In this document: piece after piece, positions 3,053 through 29,855 of the stretch
Numbering within the stretch: the first letter of the stretch is position 1
Layout: the number at the start of each line of letters is the position of its first letter
Source: a virus
Lineage: Duplodnaviria; Heunggongvirae; Uroviricota; Caudoviricetes
Strand: one strand, 5' to 3'
IMG/VR virus record: IMGVR_UViG_3300028601_000028
Coordinates: 17,878 to 81,877 of that record
DNA length: 64,000 nucleotides
The notes under the pieces: generated by a model
Told to the model about the DNA's origin: nothing
Database searches by the model: none
What the model saw: only the letters and a program-made list of their open reading frames with translations
Translations under genes and position numbers: made by a program

Positions 3053-4249
3053 ATGGCAAAGAAAAAATCAAATTCAAAAACGTTCTCGATATCACAATTA
3101 TCAGGTTTAATAGATAAAATATCAGATGAAACAGAAATAATTGTACAAGGTAATGAAGATTCTGGTTTTATTGATACTGGTGTTTATATTTTAAATGCTC
3201 TTTTTTCAAAAAGTATTTTAAATGGTGGTATTCCAGATGACAGAATAACAATATTTGCAGGTGAACCAAATACAGGTAAATCATATTTATTGTATAATAT
3301 TGCTAGAAATGCTCAAAAAAGAGGAGACTTTATAGTATTTATTGACACTGAACATTCTGTTAGTAAATCTACATTACAATCATTCGGTATTGATTCAAGT
3401 CCTGAAAAATTAAAACTTATATCTTCTAATAAAGTTGAAGATTTAAAAATATTCCTAACCAAATTTCTAGATGGTCTTAAACAAGAGAAAAAATCAGGAT
3501 CAGAAATTCCTAAAATTATAATTTTATTAGATAGTATAGGTCAATTAGCATCAGAAAAAGAAATTGAAGATGCTAAAGAAGGTAAAAACAAAGCTGATAT
3601 GACAAGAGCTAAAGCTATTAAACAATTGTTCAGAATTATTAACTCTGATTTAGGATATTTAGGAATTCCAATGGTAGCAACAAACCATACTTATCAAGAT
3701 ACTAGTTCATTTTTCCCTGTTCCAGTTATGGCAGGTGGAAAAGGAGCAGAATATTCAGCATCTACTATTATATTTTTAAGTACTGCTAAATTAAAAACTG
3801 GCAGAGAAGATGACTTAGATTTAAGTTCAACTGGTGTATTGGTTACAGCACAAGCAAAGAAAAACAGACTAGCTAAACCTAAGAAAGTTAAATTTGAAAT
3901 TGATCATAGTTATGGTACAAATCCATATAAAGGATTAGAATTTTTCTTTACTCCACAAAATTTTGAAAATTTAGGTGTAGCAAAAGGAAAATTAAACGAT
4001 AAGGGTGAGTTTGAACCAGGTGGAACAAGATGGTATATTAAACATTTAAATAAATCGGTTTTTGAAAAACAATTATTTACATCAGAAGTTTTTACGAAAG
4101 AATTATTAGAAAAATTAGAACCAATAATTTATAAATATTTTGATTACTCATCATTTGAAGAACAAGAATTATTTTTATCTAAAATGGACGAGCATGGAGA
4201 AGATTTAGATGCAGATTTTGATGATATTGATAATGATGATTTATTTTAA
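3053..4249 (+). CDS. uvsX: UvsX-type RecA-like recombinase
   Basis: Walker A GEPNTGKS. The block IDSIGQLASEKEIEDAKEGKNKADMTRAKAIKQLFRII...GIPMVATNHTY aligns closely with T4 UvsX (IDSLGNLASKKETEDAL..SDMTRAKTMKSLFRIV...IPCIAINHTY). Acidic C-tail as in UvsX. Confidence 0.85.
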   Translation: MAKKKSNSKTFSISQLSGLIDKISDETEIIVQGNEDSGFIDTGVYILNALFSKSILNGGIPDDRITIFAGEPNTGKSYLLYNIARNAQKRGDFIVFIDTEHSVSKSTLQSFGIDSSPEKLKLISSNKVEDLKIFLTKFLDGLKQEKKSGSEIPKIIILLDSIGQLASEKEIEDAKEGKNKADMTRAKAIKQLFRIINSDLGYLGIPMVATNHTYQDTSSFFPVPVMAGGKGAEYSASTIIFLSTAKLKTGREDDLDLSSTGVLVTAQAKKNRLAKPKKVKFEIDHSYGTNPYKGLEFFFTPQNFENLGVAKGKLNDKGEFEPGGTRWYIKHLNKSVFEKQLFTSEVFTKELLEKLEPIIYKYFDYSSFEEQELFLSKMDEHGEDLDADFDDIDNDDLF

Positions 4250-4270: not shown

Positions 4271-4984
4271 ATGGGAGCTAATACAAATTTAGAAAAATTA
4301 TTTTTTGCCAAGATCTTAGAAGAACCTAATCAATTTTATAAAGTAGAATCAAAATACTTTGAAAATGAATTGATTAGGTTTGTATATGATGTTATTAGAG
4401 AATATTATATAAATTCAAAAGATAAAATTGTACCTAGTCCAAAACAAGTTTGGTCTATGGTAAGTTTACAAGATGATAAAAAATTAGTTTCAAAAGAAGC
4501 TTTAAAATCATTGTTTACAGAAACAACACAAGATATAACTGATGAATGGTTAGATAGATCATTTAAAGCATGGAAATCATCAAAATATACAAGAGATAAA
4601 ATTTATGAATCCATTGATATTATAAAAAACATGGATGAAGTAAATTATGACAATGTTATGGATATTGTCGGTAGATTAAAAAAGAATTTTAGTGAGATAG
4701 ATATTATATCAAATGATGATGAAGATTTAGGGGGAGATTTTGATGATCCAGAAGAACATAAACAATTGATATCATTAAGAAAAATACCGACAGGATGGTC
4801 AAATTTAGATAAAATATTAGGTGGTGGATGGGATCATGCTACTTTTAACATAATAATGGGAGAAACTAATGTGGGTAAGTGTCTTATTTTCAACACTTTA
4901 ATAAAAATTAAAAACAAAAAAACTAATAAAATCGAAAAAATAAAAATTGGTGATTTTTTTAATATGATAAAAAAATCTTCCTAA
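4271..4984 (+). CDS. replicative DnaB-like helicase (T4 gp41-type), N-terminal fragment ending in a short split-intein N-piece
   Basis: DnaB/gp41 N-domain. Walker A GETNVGK is immediately followed by Cys204 and an intein block-A-like CLIFNTLIKIKNKKTNKIEKIKIGDF, then a stop. The rest of the helicase continues at 6543 in another frame. Confidence 0.8.
   Translation: MGANTNLEKLFFAKILEEPNQFYKVESKYFENELIRFVYDVIREYYINSKDKIVPSPKQVWSMVSLQDDKKLVSKEALKSLFTETTQDITDEWLDRSFKAWKSSKYTRDKIYESIDIIKNMDEVNYDNVMDIVGRLKKNFSEIDIISNDDEDLGGDFDDPEEHKQLISLRKIPTGWSNLDKILGGGWDHATFNIIMGETNVGKCLIFNTLIKIKNKKTNKIEKIKIGDFFNMIKKSS
4880..4984 (+). mobile_element. split intein N-fragment (34 aa, atypically short) inserted in the helicase P-loop
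   Basis: Starts with Cys directly after NVGK, where T4 gp41 has NVGKS. Block A-like sequence, followed by a stop codon. Confidence 0.6.
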
Positions 4985-5019
4985 ATTGGATTCACTTATT
5001 TTTATATATAAAAGTAAAA

Positions 5020-6138
5020 ATGATTATGAAATGTAAAATTTGTAATAATGAATCTAAAGATATTAGAGGATTATCTATTCATTTAGTAAAAAAACACCAT
5101 TTTAATAAAAATGATATTAAAAATTATTATGATAAATATTTAAAAAAAGATAATGAAGGTAAATGTTATTTTTGTGGAAAAAATTCAATTTTTAAAGATT
5201 TATCTAATGGATATCATAATATATGTGATTCTAAAGAATGTTTAGGTAAAACAAGAGCAACAGGTACATATGAATTTTTAATGTATAAATATAATTTATC
5301 AAAAGATGATGCTATAAAAATGATGAATGAAAGAGCATCTGAAAGAGGCAAAAAAATTAAAAAATCATTAAATGAAAAATTTGAAAATAATAAAAATTTT
5401 TTTAAAGAAAGATCACATCAATCAATTAACTACTGGCTGAAAAGAGGATATTCTGAAGATGATGCTAAAATAAAAGTTAAGAAAGTTACTGATATGATAC
5501 ATGAAAAAACATGGAAAAAGAGAAGAGAATATCCAGAATTATATGATGATGTTAGTCCAACACAATTAAAATATTGGTTAAAAAAAGGATATAATGAAGA
5601 AGAAGCAAAAGAAAAAGTAAAAGATAGACAAAGAACTTTTACATTAGAAAAATGTATTAAAAAATATGGTGAAGACGATGGTATAGATATTTGGATAAAA
5701 AGAAATAAAAGATGGTCTAAAAAAATGAAAGATATTTTATTAAAAAATGGAAATTATAAACAAGACTCATCAAATTTAGAAAAAATTTTTATAAATGATA
5801 TTTTAAATGAAACGAATATTAATGAATATAATTGTTATATAAATAAGCAATTTATAATATTTTGTAATAGTGATTTTTATTACACTTATGATTTCAAGTA
5901 TAATAATAAAATAATAGAATTCAATGGTGATTACTGGCATTGTAATCCTATTAAATATGATATGGATTATTTTAATATGAGAAAACAAATGTATGCTAAA
6001 GATATATGGATATATGATAAATTAAAAATTCAAAAAGCTAAAAAAGAAGGATATGATGTATTAGTTATATGGGAAAGTGATTATAAGAAAAATAAAGAAA
6101 AAATTATACAAGAATGTGTAAATTTTTTAAACAAATAA
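5020..6138 (+). CDS. free-standing homing-endonuclease-like protein (Zn-finger N-terminus, Vsr/DUF559-like PD-(D/E)xK C-domain) lying between the two helicase halves
   Basis: CxxC...CxxC motifs at the N-terminus. Repeated YWLKRGYSEDDAK-type helices. C-terminal FDFKYNNKIIEFNGDYWHCNP...GYDVLVIWESDY resembles Vsr (GCFWH...VWE). Paralogous to 8903..9883 and 25733..26791. Confidence 0.7.
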   Translation: MIMKCKICNNESKDIRGLSIHLVKKHHFNKNDIKNYYDKYLKKDNEGKCYFCGKNSIFKDLSNGYHNICDSKECLGKTRATGTYEFLMYKYNLSKDDAIKMMNERASERGKKIKKSLNEKFENNKNFFKERSHQSINYWLKRGYSEDDAKIKVKKVTDMIHEKTWKKRREYPELYDDVSPTQLKYWLKKGYNEEEAKEKVKDRQRTFTLEKCIKKYGEDDGIDIWIKRNKRWSKKMKDILLKNGNYKQDSSNLEKIFINDILNETNINEYNCYINKQFIIFCNSDFYYTYDFKYNNKIIEFNGDYWHCNPIKYDMDYFNMRKQMYAKDIWIYDKLKIQKAKKEGYDVLVIWESDYKKNKEKIIQECVNFLNK

Positions 6139-6176
6139 GAGATAATATTATAAAATATAAAAACAAAATTGTATAA

Positions 6177-6542
6177 ATGATAAGTGACAATACATATAAA
6201 AAATTTATAGAAACATTTGATGTATCAGATTGGCAAATAGAAACCGATACGGGATGGGAAGATATAAAAGAAGTTGGTAAAACAATTGAATATGATGAAT
6301 GGGTAGTAAAAACAGAAGATGGTTTAGAATTAATTTGTGCGGATGAACATATTTTATTTGATAAAAATTATAATGAAATATATGTAAAAAATTTAAAAAT
6401 AGGGGATTATATTTTATCAAAAAATGGTATTTCTAAAATAAAAGAAGTATATAAAACTGATAAAAAGTCAAATATGTATGACTTGTCTTTGTCTGATGAT
6501 TCAAATCGTAGATATTATACAAATGATATTTTATCTCACAAT
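6177..6542 (+). mobile_element. split intein C-fragment (IntC) of the helicase intein
   Basis: Ends ...TNDILSHN with +1 Ser at 6543. Block B and block F/G-like motifs present. Confidence 0.6.
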
Positions 6543-7271
6543 TCAATGTGGTTACAAAATATGGCTGCTAAAATGGCAGATAGTGGATATAATGTTGTTT
6601 ACATAACATTAGAGATGGCAAAATATAAATGTATTAAGCGTTTAGGTGCAATGAGATTAAAAATTGATATTGATGAATATGATACAATAAGTAAAGATAG
6701 TACATTTATTAAAAATAAAATAAACGAATTAAAAACAATGGCATCGTCAAATAAATTATTTGATGGTGGTAAGGTTGGTAAATTATATGTTAAAAAATTT
6801 CCAACTAGTGATTGTACAGTAACAGATTTAGAAAATTATGTTAAAAAATTTCAAGAAACAAAAAATATAAAATTAGATGCAATCGTAGTAGATTACATTA
6901 ATATTATGTCAATTGAGAAAGGTTATAATTTAGACACTATGTTATATCTTAAAGGTAAACATTTAGCAGAAGGATTAAGAAGATTAGCTGATAAGTGTGA
7001 TGTTGCTGTTATTACAGCTACACAAGTTGATAAATCAGTATGGGGAGCAAATGATATTAATTTAGATGATATACCAGAAAGTAAAGCAATAGCAGAAGCA
7101 GCGGATTCTGTTTGGGCAATAATTAGAAACCCTTCTATGAAAAAAGAAAATACATATAGATTAAAAATATTAAAATTAAGAGATGGTGAACATCATGAGG
7201 AACAAGTGAAATTTGATTTTAATACTAAATATTTAACAATGGATAATGATATATTATTTGGATCAAAATAA
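6177..7271 (+). CDS. split-intein C-fragment (122 aa) fused to the C-terminal part of the gp41/DnaB-like helicase
   Basis: Intein block B-like GLELICADEHILF and terminal ILSHN. This is followed by SMWLQNMAAKMADSGYNVVYITLEMAKYKCIKRLGAMRL, which aligns with T4 gp41 S-LGLCSLAADYLQLGHNVLYISMEMAEEVCAKRIDANML, the sequence directly after the Walker A motif. Confidence 0.8.
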   Translation: MISDNTYKKFIETFDVSDWQIETDTGWEDIKEVGKTIEYDEWVVKTEDGLELICADEHILFDKNYNEIYVKNLKIGDYILSKNGISKIKEVYKTDKKSNMYDLSLSDDSNRRYYTNDILSHNSMWLQNMAAKMADSGYNVVYITLEMAKYKCIKRLGAMRLKIDIDEYDTISKDSTFIKNKINELKTMASSNKLFDGGKVGKLYVKKFPTSDCTVTDLENYVKKFQETKNIKLDAIVVDYINIMSIEKGYNLDTMLYLKGKHLAEGLRRLADKCDVAVITATQVDKSVWGANDINLDDIPESKAIAEAADSVWAIIRNPSMKKENTYRLKILKLRDGEHHEEQVKFDFNTKYLTMDNDILFGSK

Positions 7272-7992: not shown

Positions 7993-8847
7993 ATGAATAA
8001 ATACAATAGAAAAGAAGTAGAAAAAAATACATTAGATTATTTTAAAGGTGATTCTTTAGCTACTGAAGTATGGATAAATAAATATGCATTAAAAGATTCA
8101 GATGGAAATATTTATGAATTAACACCAGATGATATGCACAAAAGATTATCTAAAGAACTAAATAGAATTGAAAATAAATATCCTAATCCATTATCAGAAG
8201 ATTTAATTTATAATCTATTAAAAGATTTTAAATATATTATCCCACAAGGAGGTCCGATGTCAGGTATAGGTAATGATTTACAAATTGTTAGTTTATCAAA
8301 TTGTTTTGTGACTGGAAATGAAAGTGATAGTTATGGTGGTATATGCAGAACTGATGAACAACAAGTACAATTAATGAAAAGAAGAGGTGGTGTAGGTCAT
8401 GATTTATCACATATTAGACCAAAAGGATCACCCGTTAAAAACTCTGCACTAACATCAACAGGAGTTGTTCCTTTTATGGAAAGATATTCTAATTCAACAA
8501 GAGAAGTAGCACAAGATGGTCGTAGAGGTGCACTCATGTTAAGTTGTTTTGCACCAGATACATTCGTATTAGTTGATTATGGTTGGGATAAAATTATTAA
8601 TGTTATTAATAAAATAAAAAACGGAGAAAAAATAAAAGCATGGACACATAATGGTTTTAAAAATATAACAGATATTCAGGAATTTATTAATAGAGATGTT
8701 TATGAAATTGAATGTGAAAATGGCAAAAAGATAGTTGTAACACCAGATCACGAATTTCAAGTTAGAAATAAAAATACAAAAAAAGAATATTTAAAAGCTA
8801 TTATTGATGTTGATATAGAAAACGAAGAATTAGTATTCTTTTTTTAA
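7993..8847 (+). CDS. nrdJ: class II (adenosylcobalamin-type) ribonucleotide reductase NrdJ, N-terminal fragment ending in a split-intein N-piece
   Basis: NrdJ-like N-terminus (KYALKDSDGN..E, GGVGHDLSHIRPKGS). The extein stops at GALMLS. Cys185 then begins an intein with block A CFAPDTFVLVDYGW and block B KKIVVTPDHEF, which runs into a stop. Confidence 0.75.
   Translation: MNKYNRKEVEKNTLDYFKGDSLATEVWINKYALKDSDGNIYELTPDDMHKRLSKELNRIENKYPNPLSEDLIYNLLKDFKYIIPQGGPMSGIGNDLQIVSLSNCFVTGNESDSYGGICRTDEQQVQLMKRRGGVGHDLSHIRPKGSPVKNSALTSTGVVPFMERYSNSTREVAQDGRRGALMLSCFAPDTFVLVDYGWDKIINVINKIKNGEKIKAWTHNGFKNITDIQEFINRDVYEIECENGKKIVVTPDHEFQVRNKNTKKEYLKAIIDVDIENEELVFFF
8545..8847 (+). mobile_element. split intein N-fragment (100 aa) in nrdJ
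   Basis: Intein blocks A and B with the T..H motif. Starts with Cys and ends at a stop codon, with no C-terminal splicing motifs in this ORF. Confidence 0.6.
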
Positions 8848-8862
8848 AAAAAACAAATTCGG

Positions 8863-8896
8863 GGTGTTTTATTTTTATATATAACAATAAAACACC
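8863..8896 (+). other. stem-loop (ggtgttttatt / aataaaacacc) between the nrdJ IntN stop and the endonuclease ORF
   Basis: Perfect 11-bp inverted repeat with a 12-nt loop. It is not followed by a T-tract, so it is not a classic terminator. Confidence 0.35.
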
Positions 8897-8902
8897 TTAA
8901 AA

Positions 8903-9883
8903 ATGAAAATAAAATTAAAGAAAATTAAAGAAGACAGAATTAGAATTATCTATAAAATAGATCAATATGATATTAATTTAGATAATAAAATATTTAAAAT
9001 TAATAAAAATACATCTAATTTGAGTGCATATTTAAATAATAAAGGGGATAATTTGATTAATTTTTTAAATAAATCAATTAATAATAAATGTATAAATTGT
9101 TCAAATACAGTAACGAAAAATAGATTTGAAAGAAATAAATTCATTACGTATAAATTTTGTGATAATTGTAATAATATTGAAAATTGGAATAAATATGATA
9201 AAGTAAATTGTATAATATGTAATACTGAACTTTTTAAAAAAGATATGATATTTTCAACATGTGGAAAAGAAGAATGTAAAAATACACATAGAAATAACAT
9301 TAATAAAATAATTAAAAATACACATTGGACTAAAAAAGAAAATGTTAATGAAATTTTAAAAAAAAGAAGTGAAAAAAGATTGTCTAATGATAAAAAATTA
9401 AATAGAAAATACAAAGCATGGAATAAAGGGAAAAAGGGCATATATACAAAAGAAACAATAGAAAAAATAAGAAATTCTACAATTAAACAAATGAAAGAAG
9501 GTAAAATTAAAAAAACTAAAATTGAAATAATATTTGAAAATTTTTTAATTGAAAATGATATAAAATATGTATATTCTTTTATTTATAAAAAAAGACAATT
9601 CGATTTTTATTTAAAAGATTATAATTTAATAATTGAAATAAATGGTGATTATTGGCACGCAAATCCTAAATTTTGGGATATTTATGGTAATGATAATAAT
9701 AAAAAAAAGTTATACGAAACACAAAAAATGAAGATTAAAGATGACATAATTAAAGAGAAAATGATAGAAGATTCTAATTATAAATTTATTAAATTTTGGG
9801 AAGATGATATACATAATAATTTTTCATTAATTATAGAAACTTTAATTAAAAAATTTAATATAAAAATAAAAAATAAAAAATAA
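8903..9883 (+). CDS. free-standing homing-endonuclease-like protein (Zn-finger + Vsr/DUF559-like), between the nrdJ halves
   Basis: Multiple Cx2C Zn-binding motifs. C-terminal QFDFYLKDYNLIIEINGDYWHANPKFWD...KFIKFWEDD motif shared with 5020..6138 and 25733..26791. Its stop is only 3 nt before the IntC start at 9887, in the same frame. Confidence 0.65.
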   Translation: MKIKLKKIKEDRIRIIYKIDQYDINLDNKIFKINKNTSNLSAYLNNKGDNLINFLNKSINNKCINCSNTVTKNRFERNKFITYKFCDNCNNIENWNKYDKVNCIICNTELFKKDMIFSTCGKEECKNTHRNNINKIIKNTHWTKKENVNEILKKRSEKRLSNDKKLNRKYKAWNKGKKGIYTKETIEKIRNSTIKQMKEGKIKKTKIEIIFENFLIENDIKYVYSFIYKKRQFDFYLKDYNLIIEINGDYWHANPKFWDIYGNDNNKKKLYETQKMKIKDDIIKEKMIEDSNYKFIKFWEDDIHNNFSLIIETLIKKFNIKIKNKK

Positions 9884-9886
9884 AAA

Positions 9887-10003
9887 ATGGATAAAACTTA
9901 TAGTAAAATATTTAAAATAACAAAAAAGGGTAAAAGTAATGTTTATGATTTTACTGTTGATGAAACACATAGAATACTCGCTAATAATTTTTATACTTCA
10001 AAT
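9887..10003 (+). mobile_element. split intein C-fragment (39 aa) of the first nrdJ intein
   Basis: Block F/G-like VYDFTVDETHRILANNFYTSN followed by +1 Cys (CHVKHPD...). Confidence 0.55.
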
Positions 10004-13000
10004 TGTCATGTCAAACATCCTGACGCAGAGGATTTTATAGATGCTAAAATGACACAGGGAAAAGTTACTGGTGCTAATGTTTCTGTTAAATTGGATGACG
10101 AATTTATGAAATGTGTTATCGAAGAAAAACCATATATACAAAAATATCCAATCGATTCTGATAATCCAATTTTCACAAAAGAAATAGATGCTAAAAAATT
10201 ATGGAAAAAAATTATTTATAATGCTTGGAAATCTGCTGAACCAGGTTTGCTATTTTGGGATACTGTTATTAAAGAATCAGTACCTGATTGTTATACTGAA
10301 CATGGGTTTAAAACGGTGAGCACTAACCCCTGTGTTGTGGGTGATACTAAAATATCCGTTGCTGATGGAAGAATGGGTGTAACAATTAAAGAATTAGCAG
10401 AAGAATCAAAAGATGTACCTGTTTATTGTTTAGATAATAATGGGGAATTAGCAATTCGTATAATGAGAAATCCACGTATAACAGGTTATAATAAACAAAT
10501 TTATAAAATTACATTAGACAATGGACAATATATTAGGGTTACTGGTAATCATAAATTTAGATTAAAAAACGGAACATATATAGAAGCTAAAGATTTAAAA
10601 AATGGTGATAGTCTTGATGTTTTTTCAAAGGTTATTATAAATAATAATAAAAGAAAAAACAATTACTATACATTAGTAAATAATTCTAATTCATATCTTG
10701 AACATAGAATGGTATCAGAATTTAATAACGGTAGAAAATTAAATGAAAATGAAGTAGTTCATCATATCGATTATAATGGATTAAATAATAATATTAACAA
10801 TTTAAAAATTATGACTATTGATGAACATAATTCATTACATAGAATTGATAAATTAGGTAATAAAAATCCATATCACAGGATGTCAGATGAATGGAAATTT
10901 AATTTTGCATCAAGAAAGGGTGACACAAATAATAAATTTTGTGGTATATATAATGATGAAATTAAAGAACATTTTATAAAACTAACAAAAAAATTAAATA
11001 GAAGAATATCTAAAAAAGATTGGGTTGAATATGCTAAAGAAAACAATTTACCTCAATATTTTTCTTCTTATAGAAGAAATTACGGAGGAGATATTGTATC
11101 ATTAGCTAAATTAGTATCATTAGAATTAAATATAGATAATAATTTTGTTGATGTAGATCCTAGAATTGTAAAAACTTATAAAAAATCTTTATCAGAAGGT
11201 TATAATTCTAAAATAGATAATAATTCAGTAATAGTAGAAAAACAATGTGAACATTGTGGTGAATTATTTTGGGTAGATTATCAAAAAAGAGAAATTAGTT
11301 TTTGTTCACAAAAATGTGCAAATGTTTATATAAATACCGATAAAAATATTAAATTAAAGAGAAAAATATCTATTAATGATACATATAAACAAAAGATGAT
11401 AAACATCAAAAATAAACAAATGGATATTTTCAAAAAATTAGAATTTAATTTAAAAAGGTGTCCTAAATTAAAAGAATGGGAAAAAGAATGTAAATTAAAT
11501 AATATTCCATATAGATTAAAAACTAAATATGGTTATCAAACATTTAGTGATATTAAAAAAGAATCAGAATATTATAACCATAGAGTAATATCTATTGAGT
11601 TAGATGGATTTGAAAATGTATATAATGGAACAGTTGATGATTTTCATAATTTTTTCAGTGGTGAATTTGAAGAAACTACAAAAACAAATAATAAAAAATA
11701 TGTTTATATTAATCAATTAAACTGTGGTGAGATCCCCTTAAATGTAGGTGACTCTTGTAGATTACTGGCATTAAATTTATATTCTTATGTAGAAAACCCA
11801 TTTACAAAAGATGCAAAATTTAACTATGATTTATTTAAAGAACATGTTATTTATGCACAAAGATTTATGGATGATATTGTTGATTTAGAAATAGAAAAAA
11901 TTGATCAAATTTTAAATAAAATTGATAATGATCCAGAGCCAGAACATATTAAAAGAGTTGAAAGAGAATTGTGGAAATTGATTAAAGACAATGCAGTAAA
12001 AGGTAGAAGAACAGGATTAGGAATTACATCAGAAGGTGATATGATTGCAGCGATGGGGTTAATTTATGGCACATCAGAAGCTACTGATTTTGCAGAAAAT
12101 ATACATAAAATATTGGCTACTTATGCTTATAAATCTTCTATAATAATGGCAGAAGAAAGAGGTTCATTTACAGTATTTAATAAGGATAATGAAAAAAATA
12201 ACCCATTTGTAAATAGAGTTCTTAATTCTTTGAAAGAATTTAAAGAAAATGATATTATAGAAAAGTATAATAAAACAGGACGAAGAAATATATCATTACT
12301 TACAATTGCACCAACTGGTTCTGTTAGTATAGTTACACAAACGACATCTGGAATAGAACCAGTATTTTTACCATCTTATACTAGAAGAAGAAAAATAAAC
12401 CCAAATGATAAAAATACTAAAACATCATTTATTGATGAAGTTGGTGATCATTGGGAAGAATATAATGTATTTCATCATAAGTTTAAAACATGGGCTGAAA
12501 TAAATGGTTATGATACATCTAAACTAGAAACAATGAAACAATCCGAACTAGATGATATAATCAAAAAATCCCCATATTTTAAAGCAACATCTAACGATGT
12601 TAATTGGGTAGAAAAGGTTAGAATGCAGGGTAAAATTCAAAAATGGGTAGATCATTCTATATCTGTTACTATTAATTTACCTTCAGATGTTACAGAAGAA
12701 TTAGTATCACAAGTATATCAAACAGGGTGGGAGTCTGGATGTAAAGGAATTACTGTATATAGAGATGGTTCTAGAAGTGGTGTATTGATAACAAAAACAG
12801 ATAATAAGAAAGCAAATATTTTTCAAGAAAATAATGCACCAAAAAGACCAGAATCATTACAGTGTGATGTTTATAGATTCCAAAATAAGGGAGATAAATG
12901 GATTGGGTTTATGGGATTATTAGATAATAAACCATATGAGATATTTACAGGTCTGCAAGAAAGTGTAAATATACCTAATAATATAACAAAAGGTGAGATT

Positions 13001-13381
13001 AAAAAAGTTAAATCAGCTGAATCTGATGGACATTCTAGATATGATTTTATTTATATAGATAAAGATGGATATAAACAAGAATTTAGAGGGTTATCTAGGG
13101 CATTTAATAGAGAATTTTGGAATACAGGTAGATTGATTTCCGCAGTTCTAAGACATGGTATGCCGTTACCAAATGTTTTACAAATAATGGATAAATTAAT
13201 ATTTGATAGTGATGATGTTATAACATCATGGAAACAAGGTATTAAAAGAATTATAAAAAAATATATAAAAGAAGGAACATTAGTAAAAGGACAAACATGT
13301 GATGTATGTGGTTCATCTAATATAGTTTTTAAAGAAGGTTGCATGACTTGTATGGATTGTGGTACATCTAAATGTGAATAG
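9887..13381 (+). CDS. nrdJ: NrdJ C-terminal portion: split-intein C-fragment (39 aa) + RNR extein, itself interrupted by a second, contiguous HNH-containing intein
   Basis: Starts with an IntC ending VYDFTVDETHRILANNFYTSN|C. The extein then runs to STNP. A Cys-initiated intein follows (aa 149-612) with an HNH motif. The extein resumes with CGEIPL, the class II RNR active-site motif TNPCGEIxL. The C-terminal zinc ribbon CDVCGSS..CMTCMDCG is typical of NrdJ. Confidence 0.8.
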   Translation: MDKTYSKIFKITKKGKSNVYDFTVDETHRILANNFYTSNCHVKHPDAEDFIDAKMTQGKVTGANVSVKLDDEFMKCVIEEKPYIQKYPIDSDNPIFTKEIDAKKLWKKIIYNAWKSAEPGLLFWDTVIKESVPDCYTEHGFKTVSTNPCVVGDTKISVADGRMGVTIKELAEESKDVPVYCLDNNGELAIRIMRNPRITGYNKQIYKITLDNGQYIRVTGNHKFRLKNGTYIEAKDLKNGDSLDVFSKVIINNNKRKNNYYTLVNNSNSYLEHRMVSEFNNGRKLNENEVVHHIDYNGLNNNINNLKIMTIDEHNSLHRIDKLGNKNPYHRMSDEWKFNFASRKGDTNNKFCGIYNDEIKEHFIKLTKKLNRRISKKDWVEYAKENNLPQYFSSYRRNYGGDIVSLAKLVSLELNIDNNFVDVDPRIVKTYKKSLSEGYNSKIDNNSVIVEKQCEHCGELFWVDYQKREISFCSQKCANVYINTDKNIKLKRKISINDTYKQKMINIKNKQMDIFKKLEFNLKRCPKLKEWEKECKLNNIPYRLKTKYGYQTFSDIKKESEYYNHRVISIELDGFENVYNGTVDDFHNFFSGEFEETTKTNNKKYVYINQLNCGEIPLNVGDSCRLLALNLYSYVENPFTKDAKFNYDLFKEHVIYAQRFMDDIVDLEIEKIDQILNKIDNDPEPEHIKRVERELWKLIKDNAVKGRRTGLGITSEGDMIAAMGLIYGTSEATDFAENIHKILATYAYKSSIIMAEERGSFTVFNKDNEKNNPFVNRVLNSLKEFKENDIIEKYNKTGRRNISLLTIAPTGSVSIVTQTTSGIEPVFLPSYTRRRKINPNDKNTKTSFIDEVGDHWEEYNVFHHKFKTWAEINGYDTSKLETMKQSELDDIIKKSPYFKATSNDVNWVEKVRMQGKIQKWVDHSISVTINLPSDVTEELVSQVYQTGWESGCKGITVYRDGSRSGVLITKTDNKKANIFQENNAPKRPESLQCDVYRFQNKGDKWIGFMGLLDNKPYEIFTGLQESVNIPNNITKGEIKKVKSAESDGHSRYDFIYIDKDGYKQEFRGLSRAFNREFWNTGRLISAVLRHGMPLPNVLQIMDKLIFDSDDVITSWKQGIKRIIKKYIKEGTLVKGQTCDVCGSSNIVFKEGCMTCMDCGTSKCE
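10331..11722 (+). mobile_element. contiguous intein (464 aa) with HNH homing-endonuclease domain inserted between TNP and CGEIPL of NrdJ
   Basis: Begins CVVGDTKISVADG (block A) directly after STNP. Internal HNH motif VVHHIDYNGLNNNINNLKIMTIDEHNSLH. Ends ...YINQLN, followed by extein CGEIPLNVGDSC. Confidence 0.7.
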
Positions 13382-15572: not shown

Positions 15573-16808
15573 ATGAAAACATATCAAATAAGATTATATC
15601 CTACTAAAAATCAAATAGATGAATTGAATGAATTATCATTCACCAGAAGTGAAATATGGAATGAATTATTGGATATACAACAAAAATCATATGAAAATAA
15701 TAAATCTATATACAACAAGTTTGATCTTAACAATATGTTACCTAAATTAAAAGAAAAATACCCAACATGGAAAAAATTAAACTCTAAATCAATTCAAACA
15801 ATATCAACAGAATTATTTGGTTCTTATAGATCATTTTTCAATTTAATTAAAAAAGATAAAAATACTAGACCTCCGAAAAAGATAGAATTTAATGATTACC
15901 ATACGATTACATGGAATCAATCTGGTTGGATAATAAAAGAAAATAATATTATAATAATAAATAAAATATCTTTTAGATATAAATCTAATTTGGATATTAA
16001 AAACTTAAATATTAAAGAAATTAGAGTTAAACATGTAAGAAATAAATGGTTATGTGATTTAATTGTTAATGATGAAATTAAATATAAAAATGATTTAAAT
16101 ATTAAAACAAATGTTTTAGCCTTTGATTTGGGTTTGAGTAAATTAGCAACAGGAATAGATAACAAAGGAAATCAAATAGTAGTAGAGAACAAAAGTAAAA
16201 AAATAAATAAATATTTTCAAAAACAAATAGGCAAAGTACAAGAAAAAAGAAGTAAAACTAAAAAAGGTTCAAAAAGAAATAAAAAGTTAAGAAAAGATTT
16301 AAATAAATTATATCATAGAAAGAACGAACAAATAAAACAAACTCTCCATATTCAGAGTAAAAAATTAGCGAATATGAACTATAATACAATTATAGTTGGT
16401 GATCTATCAGTTAAAAAATTAATGGAAAAAGAAGGAACAAATAAAAAGAAAAAAGGTATTAGAAAGTCATTTCATCAATCTAATATCAATATGTTTTTAC
16501 AATTTCTTTCTTATAAGTGCCAGAGTAAAAATATTAATTTAACAAAAATTGATGAAAAATGGACAAGTCAATTAAATTGTTTAACCGGTAAATTATTTGA
16601 TAAAAAAATAGAATTGAATAACAGAAAAGTTAAATTATCAAATGAAATAACAATAGATCGAGATTTAAATTCAGCCATAAATATAATAAAAAGATGGTTT
16701 GAAAATCATTTTGCTTCCATGAACGAGCCATTGGATTTAACCAATGTACTTGAAAAGTATAATCTTTCCAATGAAACACACAAATCTTTACCATTCATGG
16801 TTATTTAG
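15573..16808 (+). CDS. tnpB: IS200/IS605-family TnpB (OrfB)-like protein; RuvC-II glutamate replaced by Gly and zinc-finger cysteines lost
   Basis: Typical TnpB N-terminus (MKTYQIRLYPTKNQIDELNEL). RuvC-I AFDLGLSKLATG and RuvC-III IDRDLNSAINI are present. At the RuvC-II position, where TnpB normally has I-V-x-E-D-L, the sequence is NTIIVGDLSVKKL. The Zn finger TSQxCxxCG reads TSQLNCLTG, and the second CxxC is absent. Confidence 0.8.
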   Translation: MKTYQIRLYPTKNQIDELNELSFTRSEIWNELLDIQQKSYENNKSIYNKFDLNNMLPKLKEKYPTWKKLNSKSIQTISTELFGSYRSFFNLIKKDKNTRPPKKIEFNDYHTITWNQSGWIIKENNIIIINKISFRYKSNLDIKNLNIKEIRVKHVRNKWLCDLIVNDEIKYKNDLNIKTNVLAFDLGLSKLATGIDNKGNQIVVENKSKKINKYFQKQIGKVQEKRSKTKKGSKRNKKLRKDLNKLYHRKNEQIKQTLHIQSKKLANMNYNTIIVGDLSVKKLMEKEGTNKKKKGIRKSFHQSNINMFLQFLSYKCQSKNINLTKIDEKWTSQLNCLTGKLFDKKIELNNRKVKLSNEITIDRDLNSAINIIKRWFENHFASMNEPLDLTNVLEKYNLSNETHKSLPFMVI

Positions 16809-17367: not shown

Positions 17368-18024
17368 TTATAAATCATTAAATCTTCGTATAATTTTCTT
17401 ATTATTATCTGATATTGTTTCTATTGGTTTATACTGTTTAGTTTTAGTTAATGTATCTTTTTTATTATCTCTGCTCTCATTTTTTGGCTTATTATCTACA
17501 TTTTCTTCGATTTTTGATTCTTCTTCTAATTTTTTCATTTGTTGAACCAATTCTATTTCTTTTTGTTTTTCTCTTTCTAAGATATCATCTATGTTATTAA
17601 CATGTTTAACAGTTGGTATTACTTTTTCTTCAACTTTTTTTGGTTTTTCTTCAACTAATGGTTTATCTTTTTCTAAAATAGCGTCAACCATTACTTTAGG
17701 TTTAGATGGTTTTTCTATTTCTTGATAAAGTTCTTCTATTTTTACATTGGCTCTTGTTTTAATTTCAAATTCATCTGACCAAACAGGAAAATATAATTCT
17801 TCTGATATTATTTCGAATTTTATTTTTCCGGTCTCACCTTTATTATAATTTGATAATTGTGGAATATTAAATGTACAAATATTATCTGTAACATTACCAA
17901 AAAATAAATAATTATTATTTTCATTAGTTATAATTAATCTAGGTTCAATATTATTAATATCGATTCCTTCTATATTAATTTTAAATTTTAATTTATCGTT
18001 CTTTTCATTATTGTAGAATTCCAT
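17368..18024 (-). CDS. hypothetical protein with N-terminal beta domain and K/E-rich coiled-coil C-half
   Basis: ORF. Long charged helical segment (KPKKVEEKVIPTVKHV...EKQKEIELVQQMKKLEEESK). Confidence 0.4.
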   Translation of the reverse strand: MEFYNNEKNDKLKFKINIEGIDINNIEPRLIITNENNNYLFFGNVTDNICTFNIPQLSNYNKGETGKIKFEIISEELYFPVWSDEFEIKTRANVKIEELYQEIEKPSKPKVMVDAILEKDKPLVEEKPKKVEEKVIPTVKHVNNIDDILEREKQKEIELVQQMKKLEEESKIEENVDNKPKNESRDNKKDTLTKTKQYKPIETISDNNKKIIRRFNDL

Positions 18025-29783: not shown

Positions 29784-29855
29784 GCAAGAATAGTGTAGTG
29801 GTAGCATGATTTACTTCCAGTAAATAGGGTTCGGTTCGATTCCGGTGTCTTTGCT
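29784..29855 (+). tRNA. tRNA, probably tRNA-Gly (anticodon UCC)
   Basis: Cloverleaf read by hand: acceptor GCAAGAA/TCTTTGC (one mismatch, one G-U), D-arm GTGT-AGTGGTA-GCAT, anticodon stem ATTTA/TAAAT with loop CTTCCAG (U33, anticodon TCC, A37), and T-arm with GGTTCGATTCC. No encoded CCA. Followed by a terminator. Confidence 0.6.

Follow-up and report, generated by a model that had tools for sequence, protein, structure and literature searches.

A gp41/DnaB-like helicase gene of an AT-rich phage, fractured in its Walker A loop by a putative atypically split intein and a free-standing Vsr-like endonuclease gene

Introduction

Loci of three open reading frames (ORFs), in which a gene carrying a split intein is interrupted by a free-standing endonuclease ORF, have been known as 'fractured genes' since 2009, when Dassa et al. 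described them in the GOS metagenome for the phage helicase gp41 (gp41-1 to gp41-9), NrdA/NrdJ, IMPDH, DnaE and terminase (PMC2677866). The stretch of 64,000 nucleotides analysed in this work (the window; positions 17,878 to 81,877 of IMG/VR record IMGVR_UViG_3300028601_000028, a virus of the Caudoviricetes) holds a well-supported further example of that layout. It is a gp41/DnaB-like replicative helicase gene which, in our reading of the sequence, is fractured by a class-1 intein in the P-loop, itself split by a Vsr-like endonuclease gene, and whose two products would be joined by protein trans-splicing. We give this reading a probability of roughly 0.85.

The resemblance to the loci of Dassa et al. 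extends to several levels (PMC2677866). The three ORFs lie on the same strand, the endonuclease belongs to the same Vsr-like family and carried control elements in with it, and the host gene is of the same type, a phage gp41 helicase with UvsX upstream. Their gp41-7 is an endonuclease-less variant, and one relative of the window locus, L021, resembles it. The differences concern the intein. Whilst the gp41 split inteins of that collection are canonical, with an N-terminal part (IntN) of 88-105 amino acids (aa) and a C-terminal part (IntC) of 33-54 aa, the parts found here measure 34 and 122 aa and the split comes after block A; only the terminase intein of that collection had a long C-part (122 residues). 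The insertion points differ as well, since gp41-1 to gp41-7 sit at position 356 of P-SSM2 gp41, with gp41-8 and gp41-9 each at another point again, as opposed to the Walker A loop here. The promoter-like motif is TTTTTATATATAAA in the window and TATAAATA in the loci of Dassa et al. (PMC2677866). Hairpins are present in both spacers of the window locus but are not significant (z = -1.3), and so a hairpin sequestering the ribosome-binding site, of the Dassa/Edgell type, is not supported here.

Inteins with so short an N-part form a known small class, the atypically split inteins (PMC13014065, PMC11766414, PMC2677866), as an earlier note on this DNA, made from the sequence alone, had stated. Their IntN measures 15-37 aa, with AceL-TerL and GOS-TerL split after helix a1 (the 'S2' position) and VidaL and PolB16 after strand b2 (PMC13014065). 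A short IntN and a long IntC are common to the window intein and all of these (AceL-TerL, GOS-TerL, the consensus 'Cat', VidaL and PolB16 OarG), and the S2 position is shared with the AceL and GOS TerL inteins (PMC13014065), whereas VidaL and PolB16 are split earlier, leaving IntN of 16 and 15 aa. VidaL is, we presume, the intein called T4Lh-1 in full, from a T4-like helicase. The identity of the window intein to Cat, VidaL and gp41-1 is only about 21-26%; the IntC of Cat is 26% identical to that of the window over 111 columns, and CatN is colinear with the IntN profile at a level that is not significant (E 0.53).

The possibility that the window intein is an allele of the AceL/GOS-TerL (Cat) intein was considered and rejected on these grounds: the identity is 26%, and the TerL inteins have Cys1/Cys+1 (AceL, Cat) or Ser1/Cys+1 (GOS), against Cys1/Ser+1, in a helicase P-loop, here (PMC11766414). 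Because of their Cys+1, the AceL, GOS and Cat TerL inteins are not at the site between GK and S/T.

Two further systems are comparable in part. Bacterial DnaB inteins at insertion point b occupy the same ATP-binding P-loop site in a host of the same DnaB family (PMC4760082), but they are contiguous, sit in cellular genomes and come without an associated free-standing endonuclease, whereas the present intein is split and phage-borne. On the endonuclease side, the C-terminal domain has its top fold match in I-Bth0305I, the EDxHD prototype, and the window enzyme retains the conserved Asp, Glu and His and the acidic position; both enzymes are multidomain, with a DNA-binding region N-terminal to the nuclease. 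I-Bth0305I resides in a recA group I intron, however, whilst the window endonuclease is free-standing within an intein and carries N-terminal C2H2-type zinc fingers.

The helicase exteins and the split intein

The three ORFs, N-extein with IntN, free-standing endonuclease, and IntC with C-extein, lie on one strand (+) at one locus, and their coordinates and sequences (Table 1) are all as the earlier note had described them. ORF1 reads ...WDHATFNIIMGETNVGK, next CLIFNTLIKIKNKKTNKIEKIKIGDFFNMIKKSS, next a stop, so that the gene is indeed fractured inside the Walker A motif, where GETNVGK is followed by a Cys-initiated piece of 34 aa. ORF3 opens, again as had been noticed, with an intein C-piece of 122 aa (LICADEHILF, final SHN), after which the remainder of the helicase follows.

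When the exteins are compared with known helicases, they come together into one gp41/DnaB-like protein. On the DnaB-like PHROG profile phrog_19, residues 4-204 of ORF1 match positions 160-367 and residues 123-350 of ORF3 match positions 367-575; the two ORFs therefore abut exactly, their matches meeting at a single profile position, 367. The Pfam domain DnaB_C is matched by the joined exteins over positions 2-251 of 255 (E 3.7e-26), whilst ORF3 alone enters it at position 36 (E 1.1e-18). T4 gp41 (PDB 8dtp) aligns with the joined exteins as a single stretch (25-421), gapless between GK and S, with TFNIIMGETNVGKSMWLQNMAA opposite TLNVLMAGVNVGKSLGLCSLAA. LR756501, a 735-kb uncultured phage, encodes an uninterrupted homologue, 54% identical over 443 residues, in which GETNVGKSMWL spans the junction. 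The exteins of an intein-bearing relative (L018) share 85% identity with this homologue. This alignment check upholds the colinearity with gp41 that had been claimed for the joined exteins. Their closest matches are in uncultured phages of 400-735 kb; when the locus was compared with the phage collection by megablast nothing matched, and only searches at the protein level brought up relatives.

The intein that separates these exteins has its blocks distributed very unevenly, as IntN holds block A only and blocks B, F and G are all located in IntC, which bears out the split between blocks A and B previously proposed. Cys1, directly after the N-extein, is invariant in 19 relatives, and the IntN family motif CxxxxTxIxIRNKKTGEIxxIxIGDFY is conserved in the same 19. 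Much the same holds across the family for the His of block B, the Asp of block F, the terminal His-Asn and Ser+1, which are invariant or nearly so, and IntC aligns with that of relatives whose start Met is the same. By sequence, the closest solved intein is gp41-1 (phmmer with IntC, E 3.9e-8), where ICSEEHLF stands opposite LICADEHILF and NDILTHN opposite NDILSHN.

An AlphaFold2 model of IntN and IntC fused in silico adopts the HINT fold (pLDDT 79.7, pTM 0.72), with IntN supplying strands b1-b3 and helix a1 (27-39, model numbering) and the junction falling in a disordered stretch (41-51). As modelled, then, the split sits at the S2 position, after helix a1. The fused model has 60 PDB matches at E <= 0.001, the top-ranked of which are inteins or HINT-type BIL domains; the best is VidaL (6vgv; E 2.3e-10, TM 0.70/0.79), and gp41-1, Mtu RecA, Npu and Ssp DnaB and others are among the rest. 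The two parts are also oppositely charged (IntN +7, IntC -10), and this complementarity is seen in all six complete pairs examined, with IntN at +4 to +8 and IntC at -6 to -12. Dassa et al. invoked such complementarity for the association of split inteins (PMC2677866).

The endonuclease in the middle ORF

ORF2 is, as predicted from its sequence, a free-standing homing endonuclease of the Vsr-like/EDxHD kind, for which cleavage and homing activities are expected. Its domains comprise N-terminal C2H2-type zinc fingers, a helical middle and a C-terminal Vsr-like/EDxHD nuclease (YDF...IIEFNGDYWH...VIWESD). The sequence on its own has no match to Pfam, or to PDB by phmmer. It matches phrog_3339 ('homing endonuclease'), however, and has 888 homologues; most of the best 120 cover nearly the full length, and their identity is 38-91%. 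Amongst 41 sampled homologues, Pfam PF18741 (REase_MTES_1575) is found in 17 and DUF559 in nine, with C2H2 zinc-finger models in several, and the homologue profile aligns weakly with Vsr (1vsr, 1cw0) over positions 292-357 (E about 1.4).

The AlphaFold2 model of ORF2 (pLDDT 88.3) has as its two best PDB folds I-Bth0305I (3r3p; prob 1.0, TMt 0.67) and Vsr (1vsr). Residues D291, E300, H307 and E352 are conserved in the endonuclease. In the stretch ...YDF...IIEFNGDYWH...IWE..., a Glu, which according to Dassa et al. is specific to this family (PMC2677866), occupies the position of Vsr Phe62, and YWH that of Vsr Phe67-Trp68-His69. Model folds, Pfam matches of homologues and conserved residues all agree with the zinc-finger and Vsr-like endonuclease that had been suspected in the intervening ORF. 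The likely true start is ATG 5026 rather than ATG 5020, since homologues start with M-x-C-x-I-C and the gene callers picked 5026.

Contrary evidence and rival explanations

A number of observations weigh against the reading given above and are better considered together. All the evidence is computational. Scores to Pfam Intein_splicing are 18.7-23.3 bits, under the cut-off of 35.8, the IntN half of the fused model was built from a single sequence with no depth of alignment, and the fold matches of the endonuclease to 3r3p and 1vsr have marginal E-values (0.056 and 0.37, respectively). The Thr of the block B motif TxxH is replaced by Ala in all family members (CADxH), though the His is invariant, and gp41-1 has Ser at that same position. 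The window has Arg in place of the block F His (NRRYY, versus NHRFY in most relatives), a replacement also present in L021, L039, L068 and P0195. Two contigs carrying the locus (L002 and L003) end at window positions 5000 and 4986 and two others (L005 and L007) begin near 4910. Finally, the genome probably extends far beyond the 64 kb visible, so that a second, intact helicase could be encoded elsewhere.

The replacements in blocks B and F would suit a protein that assembles non-covalently, in which the intein pieces only dock the two halves of the helicase and no splicing takes place. Something of the sort has been reported for a phage NrdA that is made in fragments and held together by domains of mobile-element origin (PMC3045599). 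But docking needs no strictly conserved nucleophiles, terminal His-Asn or Ser+1, and, given a break between the Walker A Lys and Ser, it would leave a 156-aa insert within the ATP-binding loop. We regard it as unlikely.

The contig ends bear on a different explanation, namely that the stop and the frame changes are errors of assembly or sequencing and that the endonuclease is in truth a domain inside a single unbroken 'maxi-intein'. The surroundings of IntN are indeed AT-rich and of low complexity (15.7% G+C, in a window of 22%), and two contigs break there; such breaks, which several independent short-read assemblies show in IntN or just beyond it, could be due to the low-complexity A-rich sequence or to mixed endonuclease-plus and endonuclease-minus alleles. 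Even so, an identical ORF1 is present on five contigs from ENA samples (including ERZ27247324, ERZ27247376 and ERZ27247346), two JGI samples also have contigs with ORF3 and the endonuclease ORF, and L002 and L003 are independent strains, as they differ from the window by 3-5 single-nucleotide polymorphisms. Stop, spacer and start codons are identical in at least three independent assemblies.

Diverged relatives tell the same story. With loci classified by hidden Markov models, the three-ORF layout is found in about 20 distinct diverged helicase loci among the viral contigs fetched. Those with an intein only 58-79% identical have an N-fragment of ~240 aa, which ends in GK-Cys and 32-47 further residues, and a C-fragment of ~360 aa, whose start Met falls in the same alignment column; the endonuclease encoded between them has about 360-375 aa. 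The three ORFs of relatives at 50-80% identity are in different frames, each with spacers or overlaps of its own. The spacer 4985..5025 is conserved in L011, L013 and L021, and the equivalent of the spacer between endonuclease and IntC has a stop-to-start gap of 4-13 nt in relatives. Endonuclease-less relatives stay split, and 130 of the 150 best family representatives begin with IntC, i.e., have the same split point. An artefact, against which the check on the stop at 4984 had been proposed, fails to account for a layout that recurs in this way in independent assemblies and diverged relatives, and we consider it extremely improbable.

The same endonuclease-less relatives, together with a null result, speak to the idea that a self-splicing intron or ribosomal bypassing around the endonuclease gene restores a contiguous intein. 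Vsr-like endonucleases do occur in group I introns too (PMC2677866, PMC3239194). A search of positions 4700-6500 against Rfam, group I and II introns included, found no match, even with E up to 1, whilst endonuclease-less alleles with spacers of 84-146 nt are still split; moreover, known bypassed gaps span tens of bases as opposed to about 1.2 kb here (PMC2677866). Given the lack of any Rfam match and the persistence of the split in short-spacer loci, RNA splicing or bypassing is very unlikely, and we rate it lowest of the explanations considered.

A last explanation is that the endonuclease invasion inactivated the helicase gene, which is now a decaying pseudogene, its function being taken over by another phage helicase or by that of the host. 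The 64 kb in view would leave room for such a replacement, and the window encodes UvsW-like and other superfamily 2 helicases, though these are not of the replicative DnaB type. Selection argues otherwise. In pairwise comparisons (Nei-Gojobori), the ratio of nonsynonymous to synonymous substitution rates (dN/dS) stays within 0.06-0.49 for every part, from the two exteins and IntN to IntC and the endonuclease; against L021, the exteins give 0.06-0.09 and IntC gives 0.16. By these ratios all parts are under purifying selection and none looks like a pseudogene. Besides, both pieces keep full-length profile coverage and the split layout stays intact in about 20 diverged lineages, also after loss of the endonuclease. 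The pseudogene explanation is accordingly given very little weight.

Stages and mobility of the element

The relatives of the fractured helicase represent several stages of the element. The site is empty in LR756501, holds a split intein with endonuclease in the window and about 20 other loci, and holds a split intein without endonuclease in L021, whose IntN is 100% and whose exteins are 92% identical to those of the window and where both helicase ORFs are intact. The 145-nt spacer of L021 still has remnants of the endonuclease gene, ~45 nt of its 5' end and ~25 nt of its 3' end. In L026 the endonuclease gene decayed independently, and short spacers are found in L028, L030, L079 and L084.

Contiguous forms of the intein occur in TerL (L043, L065) and in DnaB-like helicases (P0255, P0195, P0167), and the idea that helicase hosts are always split had to be rejected on account of the latter three. 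In P0167, the linker ...EHELNKCINFIKENLHKFIDS... at residues about 235-255 of the contiguous helicase intein resembles the C-terminal tail of the endonuclease, NKEKIIQECVNFLNK, which suggests that a formerly split intein became contiguous again when the endonuclease gene was deleted in frame.

Indirect signs related to homing are of two kinds: the endonuclease is present in some relatives and absent from others, and beside the insertion lies a tract without any divergence. Window positions 4853-4981 and L021 positions 3986-4114, i.e., IntN and nine extein codons, show 0 differences in 129 nt, whereas ORF1 upstream is 8.4% diverged, and identity is also raised for ~200 nt on the far side of the endonuclease site. 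This tract could reflect co-conversion or a very recent exchange or, alternatively, constraint at the nucleotide level. In distant relatives, intein and endonuclease are closer to those of the window than the exteins are (in L016, 69% identity for IntC against 42% and 55% for the exteins), a difference compatible with exchange of the element between phages.

A wider family of Walker A inteins

The window intein belongs to a large family. An exhaustive profile search with IntC returned 1,320 cluster representatives (clusters at 50% identity) at E <= 1e-3, 161 of them at <= 1e-30; a word-indexed IntC search had given 11 proteins, badly understating the size. The C-exteins are TerL in about half of the cases, the others being DnaB-like helicases, ClpB/ClpX-type AAA proteins, ABC ATPases, a PIF1-like helicase and SbcC-like proteins, and in each of them (loci L021-L100, proteins P0132-P0279) the intein sits behind the Walker A Lys, with the Pfam profile of the C-extein starting right after Walker A.

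When one genome per prokaryotic species was scanned, only two family loci came out, both on contigs binned into metagenome-assembled genomes (MAGs). These are L102 (JBBAEW010000007.1) and L103 (DYLM01000025.1), in bacterial MAGs labelled Saccharofermentanales and Chloroherpeton, and both have the fractured helicase of the phage type. The first is probably a mis-binned phage contig and not a clue to the host, because it is the same 51,205-nt contig, with the same match span, as the IMG/VR viral L021.

It is tempting to bring these observations together in a single large, phage-borne lineage of Walker A inteins that has entered at least six unrelated families of P-loop ATPases, each time between the Lys and the Ser/Thr of GK[ST]. 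In this lineage the split after a1 would predominate; made by one family of zinc-finger/Vsr-like endonuclease genes, it would usually persist once the endonuclease is gone, with an occasional in-frame repair. We put this forward tentatively, as a possibility that falls somewhat short of an even chance.

Coordinates and neighbouring features

The features of the locus and of the fractured gene next to it are collected in Table 1.

Table 1. Positions of the parts of the fractured helicase locus, and of the adjacent reductase locus, in the window.
Feature	Position	Strand	Description
ORF1	4271-4984	+	237 aa; N-extein and IntN
N-extein	4271..4879	+	203 aa of gp41/DnaB-like replicative helicase, up to Walker A GETNVGK (...IIMGETNVGK)
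IntN	4880..4984	+	34 aa (CLIFNTLIKIKNKKTNKIEKIKIGDFFNMIKKSS, 4880-4981) and stop 4982-4984
Cys1 codon TGT	4880-4882	+	directly after GETNVGK
Spacer 5' of endonuclease gene	4985..5025	+	holds promoter-like motif TTTTTATATATAAA at 4999-5012
Endonuclease gene, ORF2	5026..6138 (or 5020-6138)	+	frame differs from ORF1; 370 aa from ATG 5026, 372 aa from ATG 5020
Spacer from endonuclease stop to IntC start codon	6139..6176	+	from the sequence
ORF3	6177-7271	+	third frame; 364 aa; IntC and C-extein
IntC	6177..6542	+	122 aa; block B LICADEHILF, block F MYDLSL...NRRYYTN, block G ILSHN; ends ...NDILSHN
Terminal Asn codon of IntC	6540-6542	+	
Ser+1 codon	6543-6545	+	
C-extein	6543..7271	+	Ser+1, then the other 242 aa of the helicase (SMWLQNMAAK...), stop; continues SMWLQNMAAKMADSGYNVVYITLEMA
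Peptides			predicted: ...ILSHNSMWLQNMAAK for unspliced protein; SMWLQNMAAK as fully tryptic C-extein peptide
Reductase N-extein and canonical IntN	7993-8847		IntN of ~100 aa (CFAPDTFVLV..., block B VVTPDHEF)
Second Vsr-like endonuclease	8903-9883		IIEINGDYWHANP
Reductase IntC and reductase remainder	9887-13381		IntC of 39 aa (...FYTSN/CHVKHPDAEDF)

Directly downstream of the helicase lies a second fractured gene (7993-13381), that of a ribonucleotide reductase. Its C-part contains a third intein, contiguous and HNH-containing, just before the active-site Cys (NPC/GEI). The reductase of the close relative L021 has no intein at the first of these sites, where it reads GALMLSISVKHPDAEDF, and a different one at the second.

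The palindromic motif TTTTTATATATAAA is not confined to the helicase locus. With at most one mismatch it occurs 17 times in the window, compared with 5.3 expected, and none of 100 shuffles reached 17. Copies lie at 4999, 8872, 2479(-), 20097, 24732, 25704, 29886, 46001 and other positions, most of them 20-60 nt upstream of start codons, those of both endonuclease genes included, and the motif is probably a class of phage promoter. A sigma-70 promoter scan returned 50 sites versus 53 expected and a terminator scan none. The window also contains a TnpB/OrfB_IS605-type gene at 15573-16808 (HTH_OrfB_IS605, OrfB_IS605 and Cas12f1-like TNB domains) and a tRNA gene at 29784-29855, the only Rfam match in the window at the gathering threshold.

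Discussion

If our reading of the fractured helicase is correct, a class-1 (Cys1/Ser+1) HINT intein would have settled in the P-loop of the Walker A motif, separating Lys from Ser in GETNVGK/S, at a site that corresponds to insertion point b of DnaB. Within the coding sequence of this intein, in the linker after its first helix, a free-standing Vsr-like (EDxHD) endonuclease gene would then have landed, bringing with it a stop codon, a promoter-like motif of its own and a new start codon for the piece downstream. In this way the locus would yield three proteins, a 237-aa N-fragment, the endonuclease and a 364-aa C-fragment. The basic IntN (+7) may dock on the acidic and nearly complete IntC (-10), completing the HINT fold, and trans-splicing would release a helicase of 445 aa with its P-loop restored. 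The endonuclease, for its part, would cut endonuclease-free alleles of co-infecting relatives, whose repair would copy the gene in.

Trans-splicing by an atypically split intein, as the earlier note had supposed, is supported by the anatomy of the intein, by its conservation and by selection, as far as these can be judged from the DNA. The same note went on to suggest that reassembly of the intein could be a regulatory checkpoint, which is speculation, as nothing in the sequence bears on a checkpoint.

The locus leaves the current understanding of inteins and homing endonucleases as it was. What it does indicate is that two genes of a very AT-rich phage, the helicase and the adjacent ribonucleotide reductase, give products that can apparently be made only by protein trans-splicing. 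Its relatives, in addition, show the whole life cycle of a selfish element, from the empty site, through the split intein with its endonuclease and the decayed but still split form, to the intein re-joined in frame. Natural split inteins with a short N-part are sought for protein engineering and few have been characterised, so that the 34-aa IntN found here, with its Cys1/Ser+1 chemistry, and its relatives are candidates for such use. Should the wider lineage of Walker A inteins be real and undocumented, atypically split inteins would be common in nature and not rare, and the family would offer many, possibly orthogonal, short-N split inteins of the Cys1/Ser+1 type.

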